Notes: generated by a model not told the origin, from the letters alone. A stretch of 64,000 nt of DNA from an uncultured delta proteobacterium (GCA_963755715.1 CAVWLW010000025.1:1-64000), one strand, 5' to 3'. Counted from the first letter of the stretch, positions 20,088 through 26,843 are shown. Translations and numbers: made by a program.

Positions 20088-21392
20088 TTAGAATATCTTG
20101 GGCTCCTCTAGCCGAGCTTCCAAAGAGGCGAGGGCCTTTTCGATGAGAGCGACGCGCCAGCGCAGTTCCTCCGGCGCGGGTAGGTCCGGTTGCCCGACCG
20201 GATAGTGAAACTTGCTGCCGCTCATAATCCTGCCGACGCCGACTTGAGCGGCGACATTGGCAAGGCAGGTGATCACCACCACCGGGATGCCCTTCTTTTC
20301 GATCTCTTTGGCGATCGTAGCGCCGCTACGAGTGCCGGTTCCTCACGTGGCGGTTAAAATTACGGCGTCGATACCGGCGCCGGCGATCTCCGCCGCGATG
20401 CCGGCGCCGAGCTCCGCCATCTTGCTCGGCATGGCGCCGGTGCCGGTGGTGACGAAATACTGGTCGTGAACCTTTTTAATCCGCTGACCGCTTTCCAATA
20501 CGCGCATGGCATCGAGCGGAACAAGTCGATCGGGATCTCGATCGACCGTGGAGGTGTCGTAGCCGGTATGCATGGCTTCGAATTCACCGTGTTTGAGATC
20601 GTTGCGCCCCTGGACTGAATATTTGAAATAGCGCGAGCCGCGCGAGCTTTCCAAGCGATCGGGATTGCCCTTCGGCACCAGGCCGCCTTCGGTGACCAGC
20701 GCCACGGTGGCGTCCGCCAAAGAAACAGTCAAATTTGGAATCGCGTGCGCTTGGGTCTCGATGCGCGGAATCTCGCTCTCGTACGATTGGCCGCTCAGCC
20801 TGGCCAGTAAAAGATCCGCGGCGCGGACATAATCCGGCTTGTCGGTTCTTATCGTAAAACGGCGCGGAATCGCTAAACAGTATTCCGCGCGAAAGTCTTC
20901 GATGGCCTTTTGGTCTTGCGCTATTAACCTTTCGACCAGCAGCGAATAACGTTTCAAGGTGTCCTGCATGGACGCCGCCGAGGCGCCGGTTTGAAGAACA
21001 AAAACGTGGCGGCCGATTTCTCGAGTGCCCGGGTTGTCTTCGTGCATGGCGGTGATCGCCGGGATGCGCCAGTTGTCGCGCACCCAACTGCATACTTTGG
21101 CGCAGGCGATGCCGTATCGACCGGCGTTAAAGGCCGGGCCGGCGAGAAATATGTCGGGGTGAAACTGATCGATCGCGGCGCCCATCGCTCGCAGCGCGTT
21201 TTCCTCGGCCTCATGAAAGTAGTTATCGCCGCAGGCAATTGTCGCGTATTCGACGCCGTGAGCTTTGAGAGCGTTTTCGAGCACGCTGCCGATGCCGACC
21301 GGCTGGGACAGAAAAAGGACTTCCTGACCGGCTTTTTCCTCGCCGCCGATGCCGGCAAAGAACTGGTTCAAATAGTGCAGCACCTTGATCAT
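20088..21392 (-). CDS. Glycine/sarcosine/betaine reductase selenoprotein B-like protein (Sec at UGA 20343-20345)
   Basis: HYLNQFFAGIGGEEKA, CGDNYF, GPAFNAGRYG, ALVTEGGLVPKGNPD, HTGYD; the frame continues through UGA: ILTAT-U-GTGTRSGATIAKEIEKKGIPVV. Confidence 0.9.
20310..20336 (-). promoter_or_regulatory. Bacterial SECIS-like hairpin
   Basis: GGC-AC-TCGTAGC-GGC-GCTACGA-TC-GCC; apical G-containing loop begins 18 nt after the UGA. Confidence 0.75.
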
Positions 21393-21404: not shown

Positions 21405-22691
21405 TTAGTTCTCATACTCGGCGCGAAAACCGCTGCGACCCATCTGGCTGTAGGAGGCGAAAAAGATCGTCGGATCAAAAAGGAACGGCAGATGGGGATC
21501 GTGGGTTGCTTTCAAATGAAGATCGATCTCCGCGCCGCCGATCACCGTCTCGAGCGGCGGAATATAGATCTTTTCCGAAACATTGCCCCGGCTGATCATG
21601 CCGCCGGCCTCTTTGGGATGATCGACCAGCGGACGCTCATAACCTTTCGGCCCATTGGACTCGTGCAACACGGCGGCAGTTTTTATGCCCTCGTCTTCGC
21701 AAGCCTTCAGCGTTTGCATGAAGTCGACGGTGCCGTTGCCGGTTCCCTCCATTAGGGCAACCGCGCCTTCGGCGCCGAGATTGCGCGCCAGTCGCGCCAC
21801 CCATAACCCCATCTTTTTTTTCTGCTCGAAGCTATCGTTGTAGCCGCGCGACAGGATCACGCCGAGGAAGTTGATGCTTTGACCGTGACGCGCGAGCAAC
21901 TCGGCGATAAACGGGTTGTCGCAGTGCAAAGCGGTCGGAATCTTCCGTTCGCTTTTATAGTTGCCGCTGACAATCGCGCCGTCGAAGAATTCCGCGGGAT
22001 GCACGAAAGTGGGCAAGGTTTTCGACACCTCTTCGCCGTAATAAAAAGTGCGCGCGCAAGTAAGCTGGCTCTGCACTTGATAAATCAGCACCACTTTGGG
22101 CAAAGCCGAATTGACTGGCGGCAAAGAAATGAGCCGTTTTTCCGCCTCGGCGCCGGATCGCTCGGCCGGTGCCAGAAAGCGGGCGCAGCGTAAGGCCATA
22201 ATCCTCAGCGTTTGGTCGAAAGCAACGTTGGAGACCGACGACTCCGGCGTTAGCGAGAGCACGAGATGAAAGCAATCCGAGCCATAAGAATAGGGCGCGC
22301 CGATGCCTGACATGTCGACGATGCCTTCGCGCGGTTTCTCGATCGGTGTCAGCGAGTCGAAGTGAGGGAAGCGGCCGGTCACGGTAACAAGAAGATTTTT
22401 GAAGCGCACGGTTTTGCCCGTGCCGACCAATTCTGCGGCGCCCTCAAAGCCGGGGAAGGTCGAACCGGGTCCGGCTGGTTTGGCGATCGGCATGACCGCG
22501 TCCAAAACGTGAACGATACGTTTTGGCTCGCCGGGACGGGCGATTTGAAAATCGACGTGAACGCCAGGGCTTAAATCTTTCAACAGTTCATGGAAATCGT
22601 TCACGCACAGCGACAGGGTTTTGCCGTCGAAACCGGTGCGCTCATCCCACTGAACTTGTTCGAGCCGATAATCAAAGAGCTGCAGTTCCAT
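21405..22691 (-). CDS. GrdE/GrdI-like reductase component B partner subunit
   Basis: IARPGEPKRIVHVLD, REGIVDMSGIGAPYS, HPAEFFDGAIVSGN, HCDNPFIAEL; co-oriented 12 nt upstream of the selenoprotein gene. Confidence 0.85.
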   Translation of the reverse strand: MELQLFDYRLEQVQWDERTGFDGKTLSLCVNDFHELLKDLSPGVHVDFQIARPGEPKRIVHVLDAVMPIAKPAGPGSTFPGFEGAAELVGTGKTVRFKNLLVTVTGRFPHFDSLTPIEKPREGIVDMSGIGAPYSYGSDCFHLVLSLTPESSVSNVAFDQTLRIMALRCARFLAPAERSGAEAEKRLISLPPVNSALPKVVLIYQVQSQLTCARTFYYGEEVSKTLPTFVHPAEFFDGAIVSGNYKSERKIPTALHCDNPFIAELLARHGQSINFLGVILSRGYNDSFEQKKKMGLWVARLARNLGAEGAVALMEGTGNGTVDFMQTLKACEDEGIKTAAVLHESNGPKGYERPLVDHPKEAGGMISRGNVSEKIYIPPLETVIGGAEIDLHLKATHDPHLPFLFDPTIFFASYSQMGRSGFRAEYEN

Positions 22692-22928
22692 CGGAAAGTT
22701 CTTCAACGAACAGGCTCGGTTTATCGTGCCGCCGTTGCGGGTGTCAAGCAAAGACGTTGGGCGGATTTGTCGGTCAACGGCGCGAGGACTGACCGAATCT
22801 CCATCTAGGCCTGGATCATTTTCTTTCTCAGCGAACCATTGGGTGAAATCTATGGGTCAGTTTGTAATTCTGTGGCCGATGCATTAGAAAGATTTTTCTA
22901 TGCGTGCTTCTCAGTAGGCCGACTCTCG

Positions 22929-23586
22929 ATGTCCAGCTTAAACTCGTCGAATGTTAGAATCCTGCGTTTGACGCTCGTCATTCTAATTTTATTCGGCACT
23001 TCTTGCTCGCCATTTATAACGCGGATCCCGACGGTTGCCGATGAAAAATTGGCGCGTTATGTTAGCCGCCATCGGGCTTGAGATTGTCGCGGTTTCCGAG
23101 GCGCATGACAAACGGGCGGATTATCAATTTAGCCTCGCCCAGTTCGCCCGGCCCGATATTTTAGGATTGAGCACAGGCAACCATCAGATTTACATCAGTT
23201 ACGAATTGGTCCGGCGGGCCTATGACAGCAGCGGTTATCGATGGTTGCTGCGCCATACTTTGGCGCACGAAATTGCCCATGATGTTCTCGGCCGAGATGG
23301 CGGCGGCGAGGATAACGGCGTGGACCACAGCGGTCTCGCCAACCGGATAACCAGTCGGGACCTGGGTCTGTCCGGTCGGATTACCTTTCGTCCTTATTCT
23401 CGCTCGGCGGAGCTGGCCGCTGACCGTAAGGCCATGGAGTATTGGCGCAAGCTCGACTGGAATTGCACTCATTGGGTAGCGCTATTTTCGAATTTCCTGG
23501 CCCAGGGCTATGAAGGCGATGTCGATCATCCGACCAAGGAACGTTTAGAGCAAGCCATGCAAATTTGTTCTGCGCCCTCGACCTAG
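22929..23586 (+). CDS. M48-like Zn metallopeptidase, probable lipoprotein (frameshift at about 23062)
   Basis: Signal peptide with FGTSC lipobox in the first frame; LAHEIAHD, YSRSAELAAD and HPTKERL in the second. Confidence 0.78.
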
Positions 23587-23690: not shown

Positions 23691-24764
23691 TTAGGTCTTG
23701 CGCGCTGTTCTTCGCTCCAAAGCCTGGCTGTAGCGCGACATCGGAAAACAAAAAACGAAATAACCGAGCGCCGCGAACAAGTATGCTTCGACGCCAAAGC
23801 CATTCCAAGCCGGCTCGGCGAGCGCCACTTTGATGGTCGTCAAAAAATCAAGCAGCCCGATGATCACGACCAGGGAGGTGTCTTTGAAAAATCCGATGAA
23901 CGTATTGACCAAAGGGGGGATGGCGATGTGCAGAGCTTGCGGCAGGATAATGAACCTCGTGCGCTGCCAGTAGCTATGTCCGAGCGCTTGGGCGGCCTCT
24001 TCTTGCTGGCGCGGTATCGCCTGGAGACCGCCGCGGATGACCTCGGCGAGATAGGCGGCGGCGAAGAGGATCAGCGCCAGTTGCGCGCGCAGCAGCTTGT
24101 CGATCGATACGCCGGCGGGCAAAAAGAGCGGCAGCATCACCGAAGCCATGAAGAGAACTGAAATCAGCGGCACGCCGCGGATCAACTCGATGTAAGCGAC
24201 CGTGAGCCAGCGCACCAGGGGCATTTGCGATCGCCTGCCCAGGGCGAGAAGAATCGAAAGCGGGAACGCGAACACAATGCCGAACGTGCTAAGCAGGAGC
24301 GTCAATGTCAGCCCGCCCCAGCGCTGATTCTCGACATAGGGCAAACCGAACACACCGCCCCACATGAGCACGGCGATTGCCGCGAACCCTGCGAGCCAGA
24401 GAGCGGCGAGGCTCGATCGTCTGACGACACCGACGGCGCTTAGCGCATAAAGCCCCAGGAGAATGGCGATAGCCAATGCCGGTCGCCAGTGCTGGTCGAC
24501 GGGAAAGGTACCGAAGAGAATGAATCGGTACTTATCTAATACGAAAGCCCAACAAGCGCCGTGACCGATTGCCACGCGGCAGAGGTTTGGATTCTCCGGC
24601 GCCCAAACTGCATTGAAAAACGCCCAATCGATAAACGGCGGGACGATTTTCCATGCGATTAGAAGAATGGCAAACGTTACAAGAACACTGGACCAAGTGG
24701 AAAAAAACCGAACACGTAGAATAGCCGCCGCGTGCTTTATTGCCGAATTGACTGCGCCGGTCAT
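23691..24764 (-). CDS. General L-amino acid ABC permease (AapM/BztC-like)
   Basis: GACWAF, WGGLTLT, RGVPLISVLF, FKDTSLV; ATGA overlap with the upstream permease. Confidence 0.9.
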   Translation of the reverse strand: MTGAVNSAIKHAAAILRVRFFSTWSSVLVTFAILLIAWKIVPPFIDWAFFNAVWAPENPNLCRVAIGHGACWAFVLDKYRFILFGTFPVDQHWRPALAIAILLGLYALSAVGVVRRSSLAALWLAGFAAIAVLMWGGVFGLPYVENQRWGGLTLTLLLSTFGIVFAFPLSILLALGRRSQMPLVRWLTVAYIELIRGVPLISVLFMASVMLPLFLPAGVSIDKLLRAQLALILFAAAYLAEVIRGGLQAIPRQQEEAAQALGHSYWQRTRFIILPQALHIAIPPLVNTFIGFFKDTSLVVIIGLLDFLTTIKVALAEPAWNGFGVEAYLFAALGYFVFCFPMSRYSQALERRTARKT

Positions 24765-25747
24765 AACTCGGCTCCCTTGAGCGCGAAGCGCCGATTGTAC
24801 CAGTTCATGAAACCGGCGATGGCCAAGCTGATCGTCAGATACACGAGCATAATAATGGCGATGCCTTCGATGGCCTGGCCGGTTTGGTTGATGATCGTAT
24901 TGGCGATCGACACCAAATCGGGATAACCGATTGCCACAGCGAGGGAGCTGTTTTTGATCGTGTTTAAATATTGGCTGGTCAGCGGCGGGACGATGACGCG
25001 CAGCGCTTGGGGCAGAATGATAAAGCGCCGGACTTGCCATTGGCTGTGTCCGAGTGAAGACGCGGCCTCGAACTGGCCGCGCGCCACCGCGAGGATTCCT
25101 GCGCGGACGATTTCCGCGATGAATGCCGCCGTGTAAAGCGTTAGGCCGAAGAAGAGCGCGACAAACTCGGGCGACAGCAATGCTCCGCCGGAAAAATTAA
25201 AACCATCGAGAACTGGGTAATCCAACGCCAAGGGCGTTGCGGCAACGAGGGAGGGGAAAGCGAAACCGCGGTTGCTCAAGAAAACACCGGGCAGAGGGTT
25301 CAGCGCCTCGGCCGGCGCGGGAAGTCTTTCGGTGATCACGGCGTACCAAAAAAACAGTTGGACCACCAACGGCAAATTGCGAATGACCTCGACGTAACCT
25401 GCGGCCAGCTTGGCAAGCAGCCAGTTGGGCGACAATCGCGCCAAACCGATTAGTGTGCCGAGCAAGGTCGAAAAAACAATCGCCAAAGCGGCGACCCGAA
25501 AGGTATTGAGAAAGCCGACCGCGATCGCTCTCAGGTACGTGTCCGCGGCATTGTAGGAAAGAAAGGTGCTCTCGCCGATTTCGAAACCGGATTCACGGGC
25601 GAGAAAAGCAAAACCGCTGGCGATGCGTCGCTGCCCAAGATTTTCCACGGCATTGGCAATCAAGTACCAAGCAGCGAGGACGAGGGCGGCGGCCAGCAAA
25701 GCTTGATAAACGATCGAGCGAAGGCGAATCGACTTCAACGAGCCCAT
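24761..25747 (-). CDS. General L-amino acid ABC permease (AapQ/BztB-like)
   Basis: SGFAFL, ARLSPNWL, AFIAEIVRAGI, KNSSLAVAIGYPDL. Confidence 0.9.
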   Translation of the reverse strand: MGSLKSIRLRSIVYQALLAAALVLAAWYLIANAVENLGQRRIASGFAFLARESGFEIGESTFLSYNAADTYLRAIAVGFLNTFRVAALAIVFSTLLGTLIGLARLSPNWLLAKLAAGYVEVIRNLPLVVQLFFWYAVITERLPAPAEALNPLPGVFLSNRGFAFPSLVAATPLALDYPVLDGFNFSGGALLSPEFVALFFGLTLYTAAFIAEIVRAGILAVARGQFEAASSLGHSQWQVRRFIILPQALRVIVPPLTSQYLNTIKNSSLAVAIGYPDLVSIANTIINQTGQAIEGIAIIMLVYLTISLAIAGFMNWYNRRFALKGAEL

Positions 25748-25825
25748 GACTTTGCTTTCACCGACGTCGGCTGCATGACGAAATTGGCTTACGAATACTG
25801 AAAGGCTTTGCGGCAGTCGCCGCGT

Positions 25826-26843
25826 TTAACGGATCGGCGGCGCGTACAGGAGTCCGCCGCGATTCCAAAGCTTGTTCATGCCGCGGTCCAGGCCCAGAGG
25901 GGTCAGGTGACGATCGAAGCTCTCGCCATAGTTGCCCACCTGCTTGATGATGTTGTAAGCCCAACGATTGTCGAGGCCGAGGCTTTTGCCGAGCTCGCCT
26001 TTGGCGCCGATGAAGCGCTGGATGACGGGATTGGTGCTGTTCGCTTGCTGATCGATGTTTTTTGACGTGAGCCCAAGCTCCTCCGCTTCAATCGTTGCAA
26101 ATAAGGACCACTTCACCACGTCGAACCAATGATCGTCGCCATGCCGCACCGCAGGGCCGAATGGCTCTTTGGAAATGACTTCCGGAAGGATCACGTGATC
26201 GGCGGGATTGGCTGCGCGCGAAGCCCGCGCCACGATGAGCCCGGAAACATCCGTCGTGTAGACGTCGCAGCGCCCGGCAAAATAGGCATTGAGCACTTCT
26301 TCGATTTTTTCCACCACCACCGGCTTGAGCTTCAGGTTATTAGCGCGGAAATAATCGGCCAGATTGAGTTCCGTGGTCGTGCCGGGCTGCACGCATACGG
26401 TCGCGCCGCTCAGTTGTTTCGCGCTCTTCACCTGACGCTTTTTCGCGACCATGAAACCCTGGCCGTCGTAAAAATTGATGCCGACGAAGTTGAGCCCGAG
26501 ACCGGTGTCGCGCGACATCGTCCAGGTGGTATTGCGTGAAAGGATGTCGACTTCTCCGGACTGCAAAGCGGTGAATCGTTGTTGTGCCGTCAACGGCGTA
26601 TAGCGAGCCTTTCGTGCGTCGCCGAACAGCGCGGCCGCGACCGCGCGGCAAAAATCCACGTCGATGCCGCGCCATTCGCCGTGGCTATCCGGCTGGGAGA
26701 AGCCGGCAATGCCGGTGTTCACGCCGCATTGGATGAAGCCTCGTTTAAGGGCCGCATCCGATATCGCTCCGCCGTCGACGTTGGCGACTCGTAGGAGCAC
26801 CAGCGCAAAAACTGCCGCGGTACAGAGTTGTTTTTATCATCAT
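25826..26843 (-). CDS. General L-amino acid-binding periplasmic protein (AapJ/BztA-like); signal peptide split by an extra A at about 26833
   Basis: CGVNTG, GIDVDFCRA, RFTALQSGEVD, YDGQGFMV, VGNYGE, LYAPPIR. Confidence 0.92.

Follow-up and report, generated by a model that had tools for sequence, protein, structure and literature searches.

Does the short hairpin that follows an in-frame UGA codon in a GrdB-family gene act as a selenocysteine insertion sequence (SECIS), and does its pairing limit which residues the active site of the encoded protein can carry? The question is raised by a gene on the minus strand of a 64,000 nucleotide (nt) stretch of DNA from an uncultured delta proteobacterium (GCA_963755715.1 CAVWLW010000025.1:1-64000), referred to here at its full length as the window. 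A minus strand open reading frame of 349 amino acids (aa), positions 20343–21392, terminates at the TGA at 20343–20345 and is followed in the same frame by 84 further sense codons, up to a stop at 20088–20090. The original prediction, which was made from the sequence alone, had described this split at the UGA and the frame that stays open beyond it, and translation of the minus strand bears it out. Its statements about the sequence as a whole are correct, with the feature situated on the minus strand.

The read-through protein gives 353.4 bits with the Pfam family GRDB (PF07355, cut-off 22) and 371.8 bits with TIGR01918 (cut-off 65.45), which is the NCBIfam model of the glycine/betaine/sarcosine/D-proline reductase selenoprotein B subfamily. 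The TIGR01918 match extends over residues 3–434 and runs straight through the TGA, and therefore the two parts belong to one gene. Orthologues align over residues 1–434 with 62–80% identity and each displays one internal TGA. The equivalog and exception models all score below their cut-offs, i.e. GrdH 362.7 (cut-off 775), GrdF 354.8 (800), and GrdB 330.9 (602.2). The codons 3′ of the TGA are GGA ACC GGC ACT CGT AGC GGC GCT ACG ATC GCC. With the TGA read as selenocysteine (Sec, U), they give U-G-T-G-T-R-S-G-A-T-I-A. The segment U-G-T-G-T-R-S replaces UxxCxxC, the canonical motif of GrdB, GrdF, and GrdH (PMC6778437, PMC13188914); the first Cys is changed to Gly and the second Cys to Ser.

Pairing in the stem and the Cys/Ser exchange

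The stem of the hairpin is kept paired across the family, and the pair that includes the first base of the Ser/Cys codon is intact in every distinct copy aligned. The homologue set consists of 114 loci: the five GrdB-family genes of the window genome, each with one in-frame TGA, the best 80 from reference genomes (590 of 597 pattern matches there encoded relatives), and 29 from 40 related genomes. The window genome is 7.4 Mb in size and 93.6% complete, and its closest relatives are Candidatus Binatia. A GrdB-family match is found in 37 of the 41 genomes of the relatives set, a tally that includes the window genome and the unpublished genome G005; no G005 sequence is part of the homologue set. 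Two of the 114 genes stop short of the Sec site, and the 112 that reach it all carry TGA. The pair counts given below are taken from 96 distinct aligned 66-nt stretches, obtained from 111 usable ones.

Within the 6 base pair (bp) core, 98.8% of cells are paired over the 96 rows and three pairs change on both sides. Adjacent to the loop, columns 27–31 show C-G in 95 rows and U-A in one (TGT with ACA), and columns 26–32 are G-C in all 96. Columns 25–33, which join the first base of the Ser/Cys codon to the third base of the Ala codon, are A-U in 65 rows and U-A in 31, with none unpaired. Columns 24–34, the third base of Arg and the first base of codon 9, display U-A 49 times, C-G 45 times, U-G once, and a mismatch once. 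The two outer pairs are G-C in 89 rows and G-U in seven (columns 23–35), and C-G in 90 rows with six unpaired (columns 22–36). The covariation score is 0.270 as compared with a shuffled mean of 0.115; none of 500 shuffles is as high, and slid partners score 0.092 or less. RNAalifold independently predicts five of the six core pairs. Covariation over a nucleotide alignment of homologues is one of the checks that the original prediction had named, and by it the stem pairing is conserved, with compensatory changes.

The pairing of the Ser codon AGC with the Ala codon GCT, as first proposed, is present in the minimum free energy (MFE) fold of this copy, and AGC is found with GCT in all 65 distinct Ser-type rows. 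It had also been argued that a Cys codon TGC would need GCA opposite. All 31 distinct Cys-type rows agree with this, showing U-A at the pair (TGC with GCA, once TGT with ACA). A Cys-type case is found within the same genome, in the paralogue on contig C14, where the sequence reads CGC TGC GGC GCA GCG. At the third position of the Ala codon, all 76 Ser-type rows have T and all 31 Cys-type rows have A; in these rows the Gly codon beside the UGA is free at its own third position (A 19, G 18, C 35, T 4). In the 15 long open reading frames of the window, GCT represents 13.5% and GCA 8.5% of Ala codons, and CGT 11.6% of Arg codons. Since these are minor codons here, codon preference cannot explain the fixation of GCT or GCA. 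The synonymous choice of Arg codon follows the first base of codon 9 in a similar manner: CGU goes with ACG, and CGC with GCG or GUG. The alignment indicates that the Cys/Ser exchange is compensated in the stem by the synonymous Ala change.

Because these loci had been found by way of the protein, a scan of metagenome DNA was added. The pattern was formed from invariant columns with A or T permitted at both varying positions, such that all four combinations could match. At least 121 matches were found; among those listed, 101 are distinct, and all 121 listed are situated in open GrdB-like frames. The Ser/Cys-Ala pair among the 121 matches listed is A..T in 22 and T..A in 99, and neither A..A nor T..T occurs. 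The neighbouring pair, again among the matches listed, is T..A in 89, C..G in 29, A..T in two, and T..G in one, with no mismatch. Further motifs seen among these matches are UGTGTRCGAT (six), UGSCTRSGAA (one), and UGTCTRSGAA (one). In UGTGTRCGAT the first Cys is replaced by Gly and the second Cys is retained. Since mixed motif combinations exist, the two cysteines appear to have been lost separately in different lineages.

The codons of R-[C/S]-G-A-[T/A/V] make up the stem, and for that reason it overlaps the active-site motif. A change of the second Cys from UGC to Ser AGC flips one pair from U-A to A-U and, in the mechanism proposed, would be tolerated only with a synonymous GCA-to-GCU change; the choice of the Arg codon is likewise tied to the first base of codon 9. 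Viewed at single bases, the comparison shows how a bacterial SECIS inside a coding region couples RNA structure to active-site evolution, in that the active-site Cys/Ser exchange is seen only alongside a silent change and the Arg codon is tied to the residue at codon 9.

An inverted repeat at this site might arise simply because the conserved peptide R-[C/S]-G-A-[T/A] demands these codons, with no function in the RNA. The stem does lie wholly inside conserved codons, and its folding energy is unexceptional. However, the pairing is kept by means of synonymous sites that are free of protein constraint. Whether Ala is encoded by GCT or by GCA follows the A or U in codon 6 with no exception in 96 homologous sequences and, among the metagenome matches listed, in 101 distinct ones, and the Arg codon, CGT or CGC, tracks codon 9. 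In addition, the tracking codons are minor in the genome and flanking four-fold sites vary freely. A by-product of the peptide is thus very improbable.

The 7-bp stem that was originally described is present in this copy and in its MFE fold, but the seventh pair, in which the T of ACT faces the A of ATC, is not conserved among homologues: 59 of the 96 rows have it, as do 9 of 24 distinct rows from within the window's clade. GGC, the Gly codon that occupies the first Cys position, does pair with GCC (20310–20312) in the MFE fold of this copy, as had been stated. The three pairs of this lower stem are found in 22, 80, and 47 of the 96 rows, and all three together in 7 of the 24 rows of the window's clade. 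The lower stem is therefore not conserved, and the proposal of a GGC/GCC compensation for the Cys-to-Gly change finds no support. No compensation of the Cys-to-Gly change is visible because the first Cys site is outside of the conserved helix.

The altered motif is shared among related genes. UGTGTRSGAT is the motif class of the window's clade, with 30 rows at 62–97% identity and, in addition, one Rokubacteria copy at 42%. U-G-T-G-T-R-S is kept in all 30 rows of this clade. The class UGTSTRSGAA has 41 rows, and the other classes are UGTCSRSGAV, UGSSTRCGAA, the canonical UGTCTRCGAT, UGTCNRCGAT, and UGSCNRCGAT, together with a few single cases. As judged from these homologues, the altered motif is a trait conserved throughout the clade and does not come from a read error. 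Coordinates of the features are collected in Table 1.

Table 1. Features of the GrdB-family locus, with positions counted from the first nucleotide of the window
Feature	Position	Strand	Remarks
GrdB-family selenoprotein B gene	20088–21392	minus	434 codons and stop, one UGA read through (U350)
Sec codon UGA (U350)	20343–20345	minus	From translation; TGA in 112/112 homologue loci reaching the site
Gly353 codon GGC	20334–20336	minus	Site of the first Cys of UxxCxxC
Ser356 codon AGC	20325–20327	minus	At the second Cys position; base 1 pairs with base 3 of the Ala codon
Ala358 codon GCT	20319–20321	minus	Synonymous third base carries the compensating change
7-bp inverted repeat TCGTAGC-GGC-GCTACGA	20315–20331	minus	Within the MFE fold
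Conserved hairpin core, 6-bp stem CGUAGC/GCUACG, loop GGC (20322–20324)	20316–20330	minus	From the MFE fold and covariation
Rfam RF01990 (SECIS_4) alignment	20305–20342	minus	Model positions 1–38, 35.7 bits
GrdE-like partner subunit	21405–22751	minus	Directly upstream; PF09338 314.8 bits, residues 21–408

The hairpin as a bacterial SECIS element

The consensus model of the bacterial SECIS, as set out in the legend to Fig. 2 of PMC13188914, has a loop of 3–9 nt on an upper stem of 4–16 bp, a G at one or both of the first two positions of the loop, a distance of 16–37 nt from the UGA to the loop, and an MFE of −7.5 kcal/mol or lower. The hairpin agrees with this model in each respect. It consists of a 3-nt GGC loop on a stem with 6 bp conserved (7 bp in this copy), and the loop has the form GGN, as all 96 rows have G in columns 28 and 29. 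The stem begins 12 nt and the loop 18 nt after the UGA. The 17-nt hairpin alone gives −7.9 kcal/mol, and the UGA with the 45 nt that follow gives −14.4 kcal/mol.

A search with the Rfam model RF01990 (SECIS_4), that of GrdB-type selenoprotein B, aligns all 38 model positions with a score of 35.7 bits and an E-value of 6.5e-7 for the 221 nt searched; the score falls just short of the gathering score of 38. The hairpin and the model have in common the 6-bp stem, the 3-nt GGN loop, and a start just past UGA-GGN-ACN. They differ in the fourth stem pair, A-U in the window as opposed to U-A in the model, which goes with Ser versus Cys. The 2-bp lower helix of the model is paired in only 35.9% of cells in the homologue set. 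An Rfam scan of 23 kb around the four paralogues, grdA, and selD gave nothing at an E-value of 0.01 or better. At its curated cut-off, SECIS_4 misses this copy as well as the two paralogues tested. Taken as a whole, the hairpin is very probably the bacterial SECIS of a GrdB-family selenoprotein B gene, and as such the element is of an ordinary, known type.

In such a role, the predicted hairpin on the mRNA would be bound by SelB carrying Sec-tRNA(Sec). With the UGA in the A site of the ribosome, SelB would bring the tRNA to this codon, and residue 350 would become selenocysteine. A functional RNA that serves another purpose, e.g. ribosome pausing or mRNA stability, is most unlikely. The Rfam score below the cut-off leaves some room for it, but the hairpin conforms exactly to the SECIS model in position, loop sequence, and size, occurs in all copies examined only immediately 3′ of the Sec-UGA, and aligns with an Rfam family that is itself a SECIS.

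The original prediction also held that Sec insertion is under selection. In agreement with this, TGA is present at every locus that reaches the site, the rare Ala codon GCT is fixed, and the Sec machinery is present. A tRNA-Sec is found in the genome with 76.7 bits, and contig C3 carries a selA-selB-selD cluster (SelA 617.3 bits, SelB 416.1 bits). The genome has a GrdA with 180.8 bits that shows the CxxU motif and a TGA of its own, and a GrdC adjoins it directly upstream (L129:9257–11139; reduct_C_beta 507.2 bits, cut-off 450). GrdA is found in 34 of the 41 genomes of the relatives set, window genome and G005 included, and all full-length matches have the TGA; the sole match that is not full-length is a fragment at a contig end. 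In the window, TGA is an ordinary stop in 5 of the 15 long open reading frames, and thus the genetic code is standard.

The selD gene, which has a Sec-UGA of its own, matches its family model in two frames (genome G000, contig C3 at approximately 71648–71667; L018:2063–2082). A HAD-hydrolase open reading frame of 215 codons (L129:6966–8042, minus strand) stays open for approximately 143 more codons past its TGA, probably by chance.

Contigs of four public runs from four studies show no difference from the window in the hairpin or at the TGA. Three of these are DNA runs and one is a metatranscriptome, with a contig that covers 20199–20537. The contigs do differ from the window at nearby positions, among them 20340 and 20346, which are the third bases of the codons that flank the TGA. 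As assembled contigs were compared, the result represents agreement of other assemblies and not read-level depth. These agreeing contigs from four other studies, together with the presence of UGTGTRSGAT in 30 tree rows from many assemblies, uphold the earlier view that the change is real and no read error. Three soil DNA runs also yield several unrelated contigs that match only 34 nt, 20319–20352, i.e. the TGA and the hairpin, and diverge on both sides. These are probably from other GrdB-family genes, in which case the stretch would comprise the most conserved nucleotides of the family.

It is scarcely credible that the TGA represents a genuine stop, an error of sequencing, or the lesion of a pseudogene, with the 84 downstream codons not translated together with the upstream part: gene callers do split the gene at this codon and the assembly has apparent single-base frameshifts elsewhere (selD and the C14 paralogue), but TGA occupies the family Sec position at 112 of 112 loci, the family profile runs across it, the contigs of four studies, one of them a metatranscriptome, agree at the TGA and the hairpin, and the genome has the full Sec machinery.

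Number of exchanges and points on the other side

A FastTree tree of 107 proteins was built with the ten motif residues masked and with the short rows L005, L023, L067, L073, and L115 excluded. In this masked tree the Ser-type copies fall into three clades apart from one another, each of which adjoins Cys-type copies, and the minimum is three changes. When a single Ser clade is forced (IQ-TREE, LG+G4, 41 rows of which 21 are Ser-type), the likelihood is 55.5 log units worse, with p = 0.0076 in the approximately unbiased test; this p-value is somewhat optimistic, as the group tested was named after the first tree had been seen. Being unrooted, the trees are compatible with either direction of the exchange, Cys to Ser or the reverse.

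That optimism is one of several points that weigh against the interpretation of the hairpin, the exchange, and the enzyme given here. The A-U/U-A flip represents only two to three independent events, which are too few for a sign test. The case for compensation rests on these two or three flips and on the long-term invariance of a silent site, and not on many events. The fold energy of a 76-nt segment has a z-score of −0.83, with 31 of 200 shuffles folding at least as well, and the −14.4 kcal/mol of the 48-nt segment (UGA and 45 nt) compares with −10.4 ± 2.7 for shuffles, 8.7% of which are as low. In 16 of the 96 homologue rows the MFE fold of the UGA and 45 nt is without the stem. The gathering score of SECIS_4 is not reached by the window copy, and in small-window scans the C14 paralogue gives 20.6 bits and the C56 paralogue no match at an E-value of 1 or better. 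In this assembly selD shows an apparent single-base indel or frameshift. A search of the genome, at 93.6% completeness, did not turn up GrdD (NF040747). Across six orthologues, the gene neighbourhoods have only the GrdE-like/GrdB-like pair in common and provide no clue to the substrate.

Folding energy was set aside as evidence for the element, as it is not significant against shuffles. Conservation among the homologous sequences indicates that the hairpin is beyond chance, for which the folding energy alone is insufficient.

Partner subunit and type of enzyme

The gene directly upstream encodes a GrdE-like partner subunit. It is probably translated from the ATG at 22691, which coincides with the beginning of the Pfam match. 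The pyruvoyl group of GrdE derives from a Cys (PMC9908766). In a tblastn alignment to the partners of 105 loci, the partner encoded in the window displays SGNY in place of the canonical SGNC and is without the pyruvoyl-precursor Cys. Partners of the window's clade have SGNY, SGNF, or SGTY, and the canonical loci have DGAIVSGNCVS. The partners of the other four paralogues in this genome are likewise without Cys at the SGNC position, and none of the five protein-B genes of the genome has a full UxxCxxC.

These features point to a substrate-specific reductase of the 'protein B' type with a GrdE-like partner encoded upstream, which on the basis of its motifs would work without Schiff-base chemistry. 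Protein B would probably hand its product to the GrdA and GrdC of the genome. Its substrate most likely needs no Schiff base, as with betaine reductase and fluoroacetate reductase, because both cysteines of UxxCxxC and the pyruvoyl-forming Cys of the partner are gone.

The canonical GrdB/GrdE, GrdF/GrdG, and GrdH/GrdI of Clostridia share with this locus the GrdE-like and GrdB-like pair, the Sec position, and the presence of GrdA (CxxU) and GrdC. In contrast to canonical protein B of Clostridia, the window has UGTGTRS and not UxxCxxC, the partner has SGNY and not SGNC, and GrdD was not found in the genome. The closest described parallel is the fluoroacetate reductase FarB/FarE of Cloacibacillus porcorum. 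FarB is a Sec-containing GrdB-like protein without the CxxC cysteines, and its GrdE-like partner FarE, like GrdI of betaine reductase, is without pyruvoyl-forming cysteines (PMC10838667). However, the relation is distant: the FarE model NF053623 gives 100.8 bits against a cut-off of 675, and phylum and gene neighbourhood differ.

One genome paper took a copy without UxxCxxC for a pseudogene (PMC6778437). The present comparison shows that B components without UxxCxxC are conserved selenoproteins and not pseudogenes.

A broader proposal is offered as tentative only, and it falls short of being probable. Binatia and other soil and groundwater lineages may possess several undescribed families of Sec-dependent protein-B-type reductases in which the UxxCxxC cysteines and the pyruvoyl group have been lost; a genome that has any shows 1 to 10 matches. 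The second Cys would have been lost independently at least twice, and probably three times, each time with repair of the SECIS stem. The products would be active enzymes that feed a shared GrdA/GrdC from non-glycine substrates, e.g. quaternary amines or other alpha-substituted acids. If true, this would represent an unrecognised selenium-dependent metabolism in soil bacteria. In the literature searched, with subscription journals and supplements outside its coverage, nothing was found on glycine reductase in Binatota, and a cysteine-less, non-pyruvoyl protein-B clade is not described there. The interest of the locus lies in the clean coupling of an active-site substitution with a silent compensation, and in these undescribed and widespread cysteine-less, non-pyruvoyl clades. 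The enzyme clades are common in soil Binatia and form a reasonable target for biochemistry.

The fifth GrdB paralogue of the genome, with the motif UGSSTRCGAA, is the only own-genome copy with a Cys at the second site. An A/T run in it contains an apparent single-base indel that splits it between two frames (L005:2115–2147; contig C14 at approximately 73940–73972), and it is either a pseudogene or affected by an assembly error.

Between the transporter genes and the GrdE-like gene of the window there is an open reading frame of 183 codons (23035–23586, plus strand) that matches neither Pfam nor NCBIfam models and is perhaps not a gene. Other neighbours of the orthologues are an ATP-binding cassette (ABC) transporter, solute-binding proteins, a EutA-like protein with a cupin protein, and a B12-binding radical-SAM protein. 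Among the upstream neighbours at three loci (L253:6341–9115, L254:5637–8426, and L255:6899–8740), the EutA-like and cupin proteins are found in two and the B12-binding radical-SAM protein in one. In the window (23691–26800) and at locus L251, the neighbour is an ABC transporter of the polar-amino-acid type.

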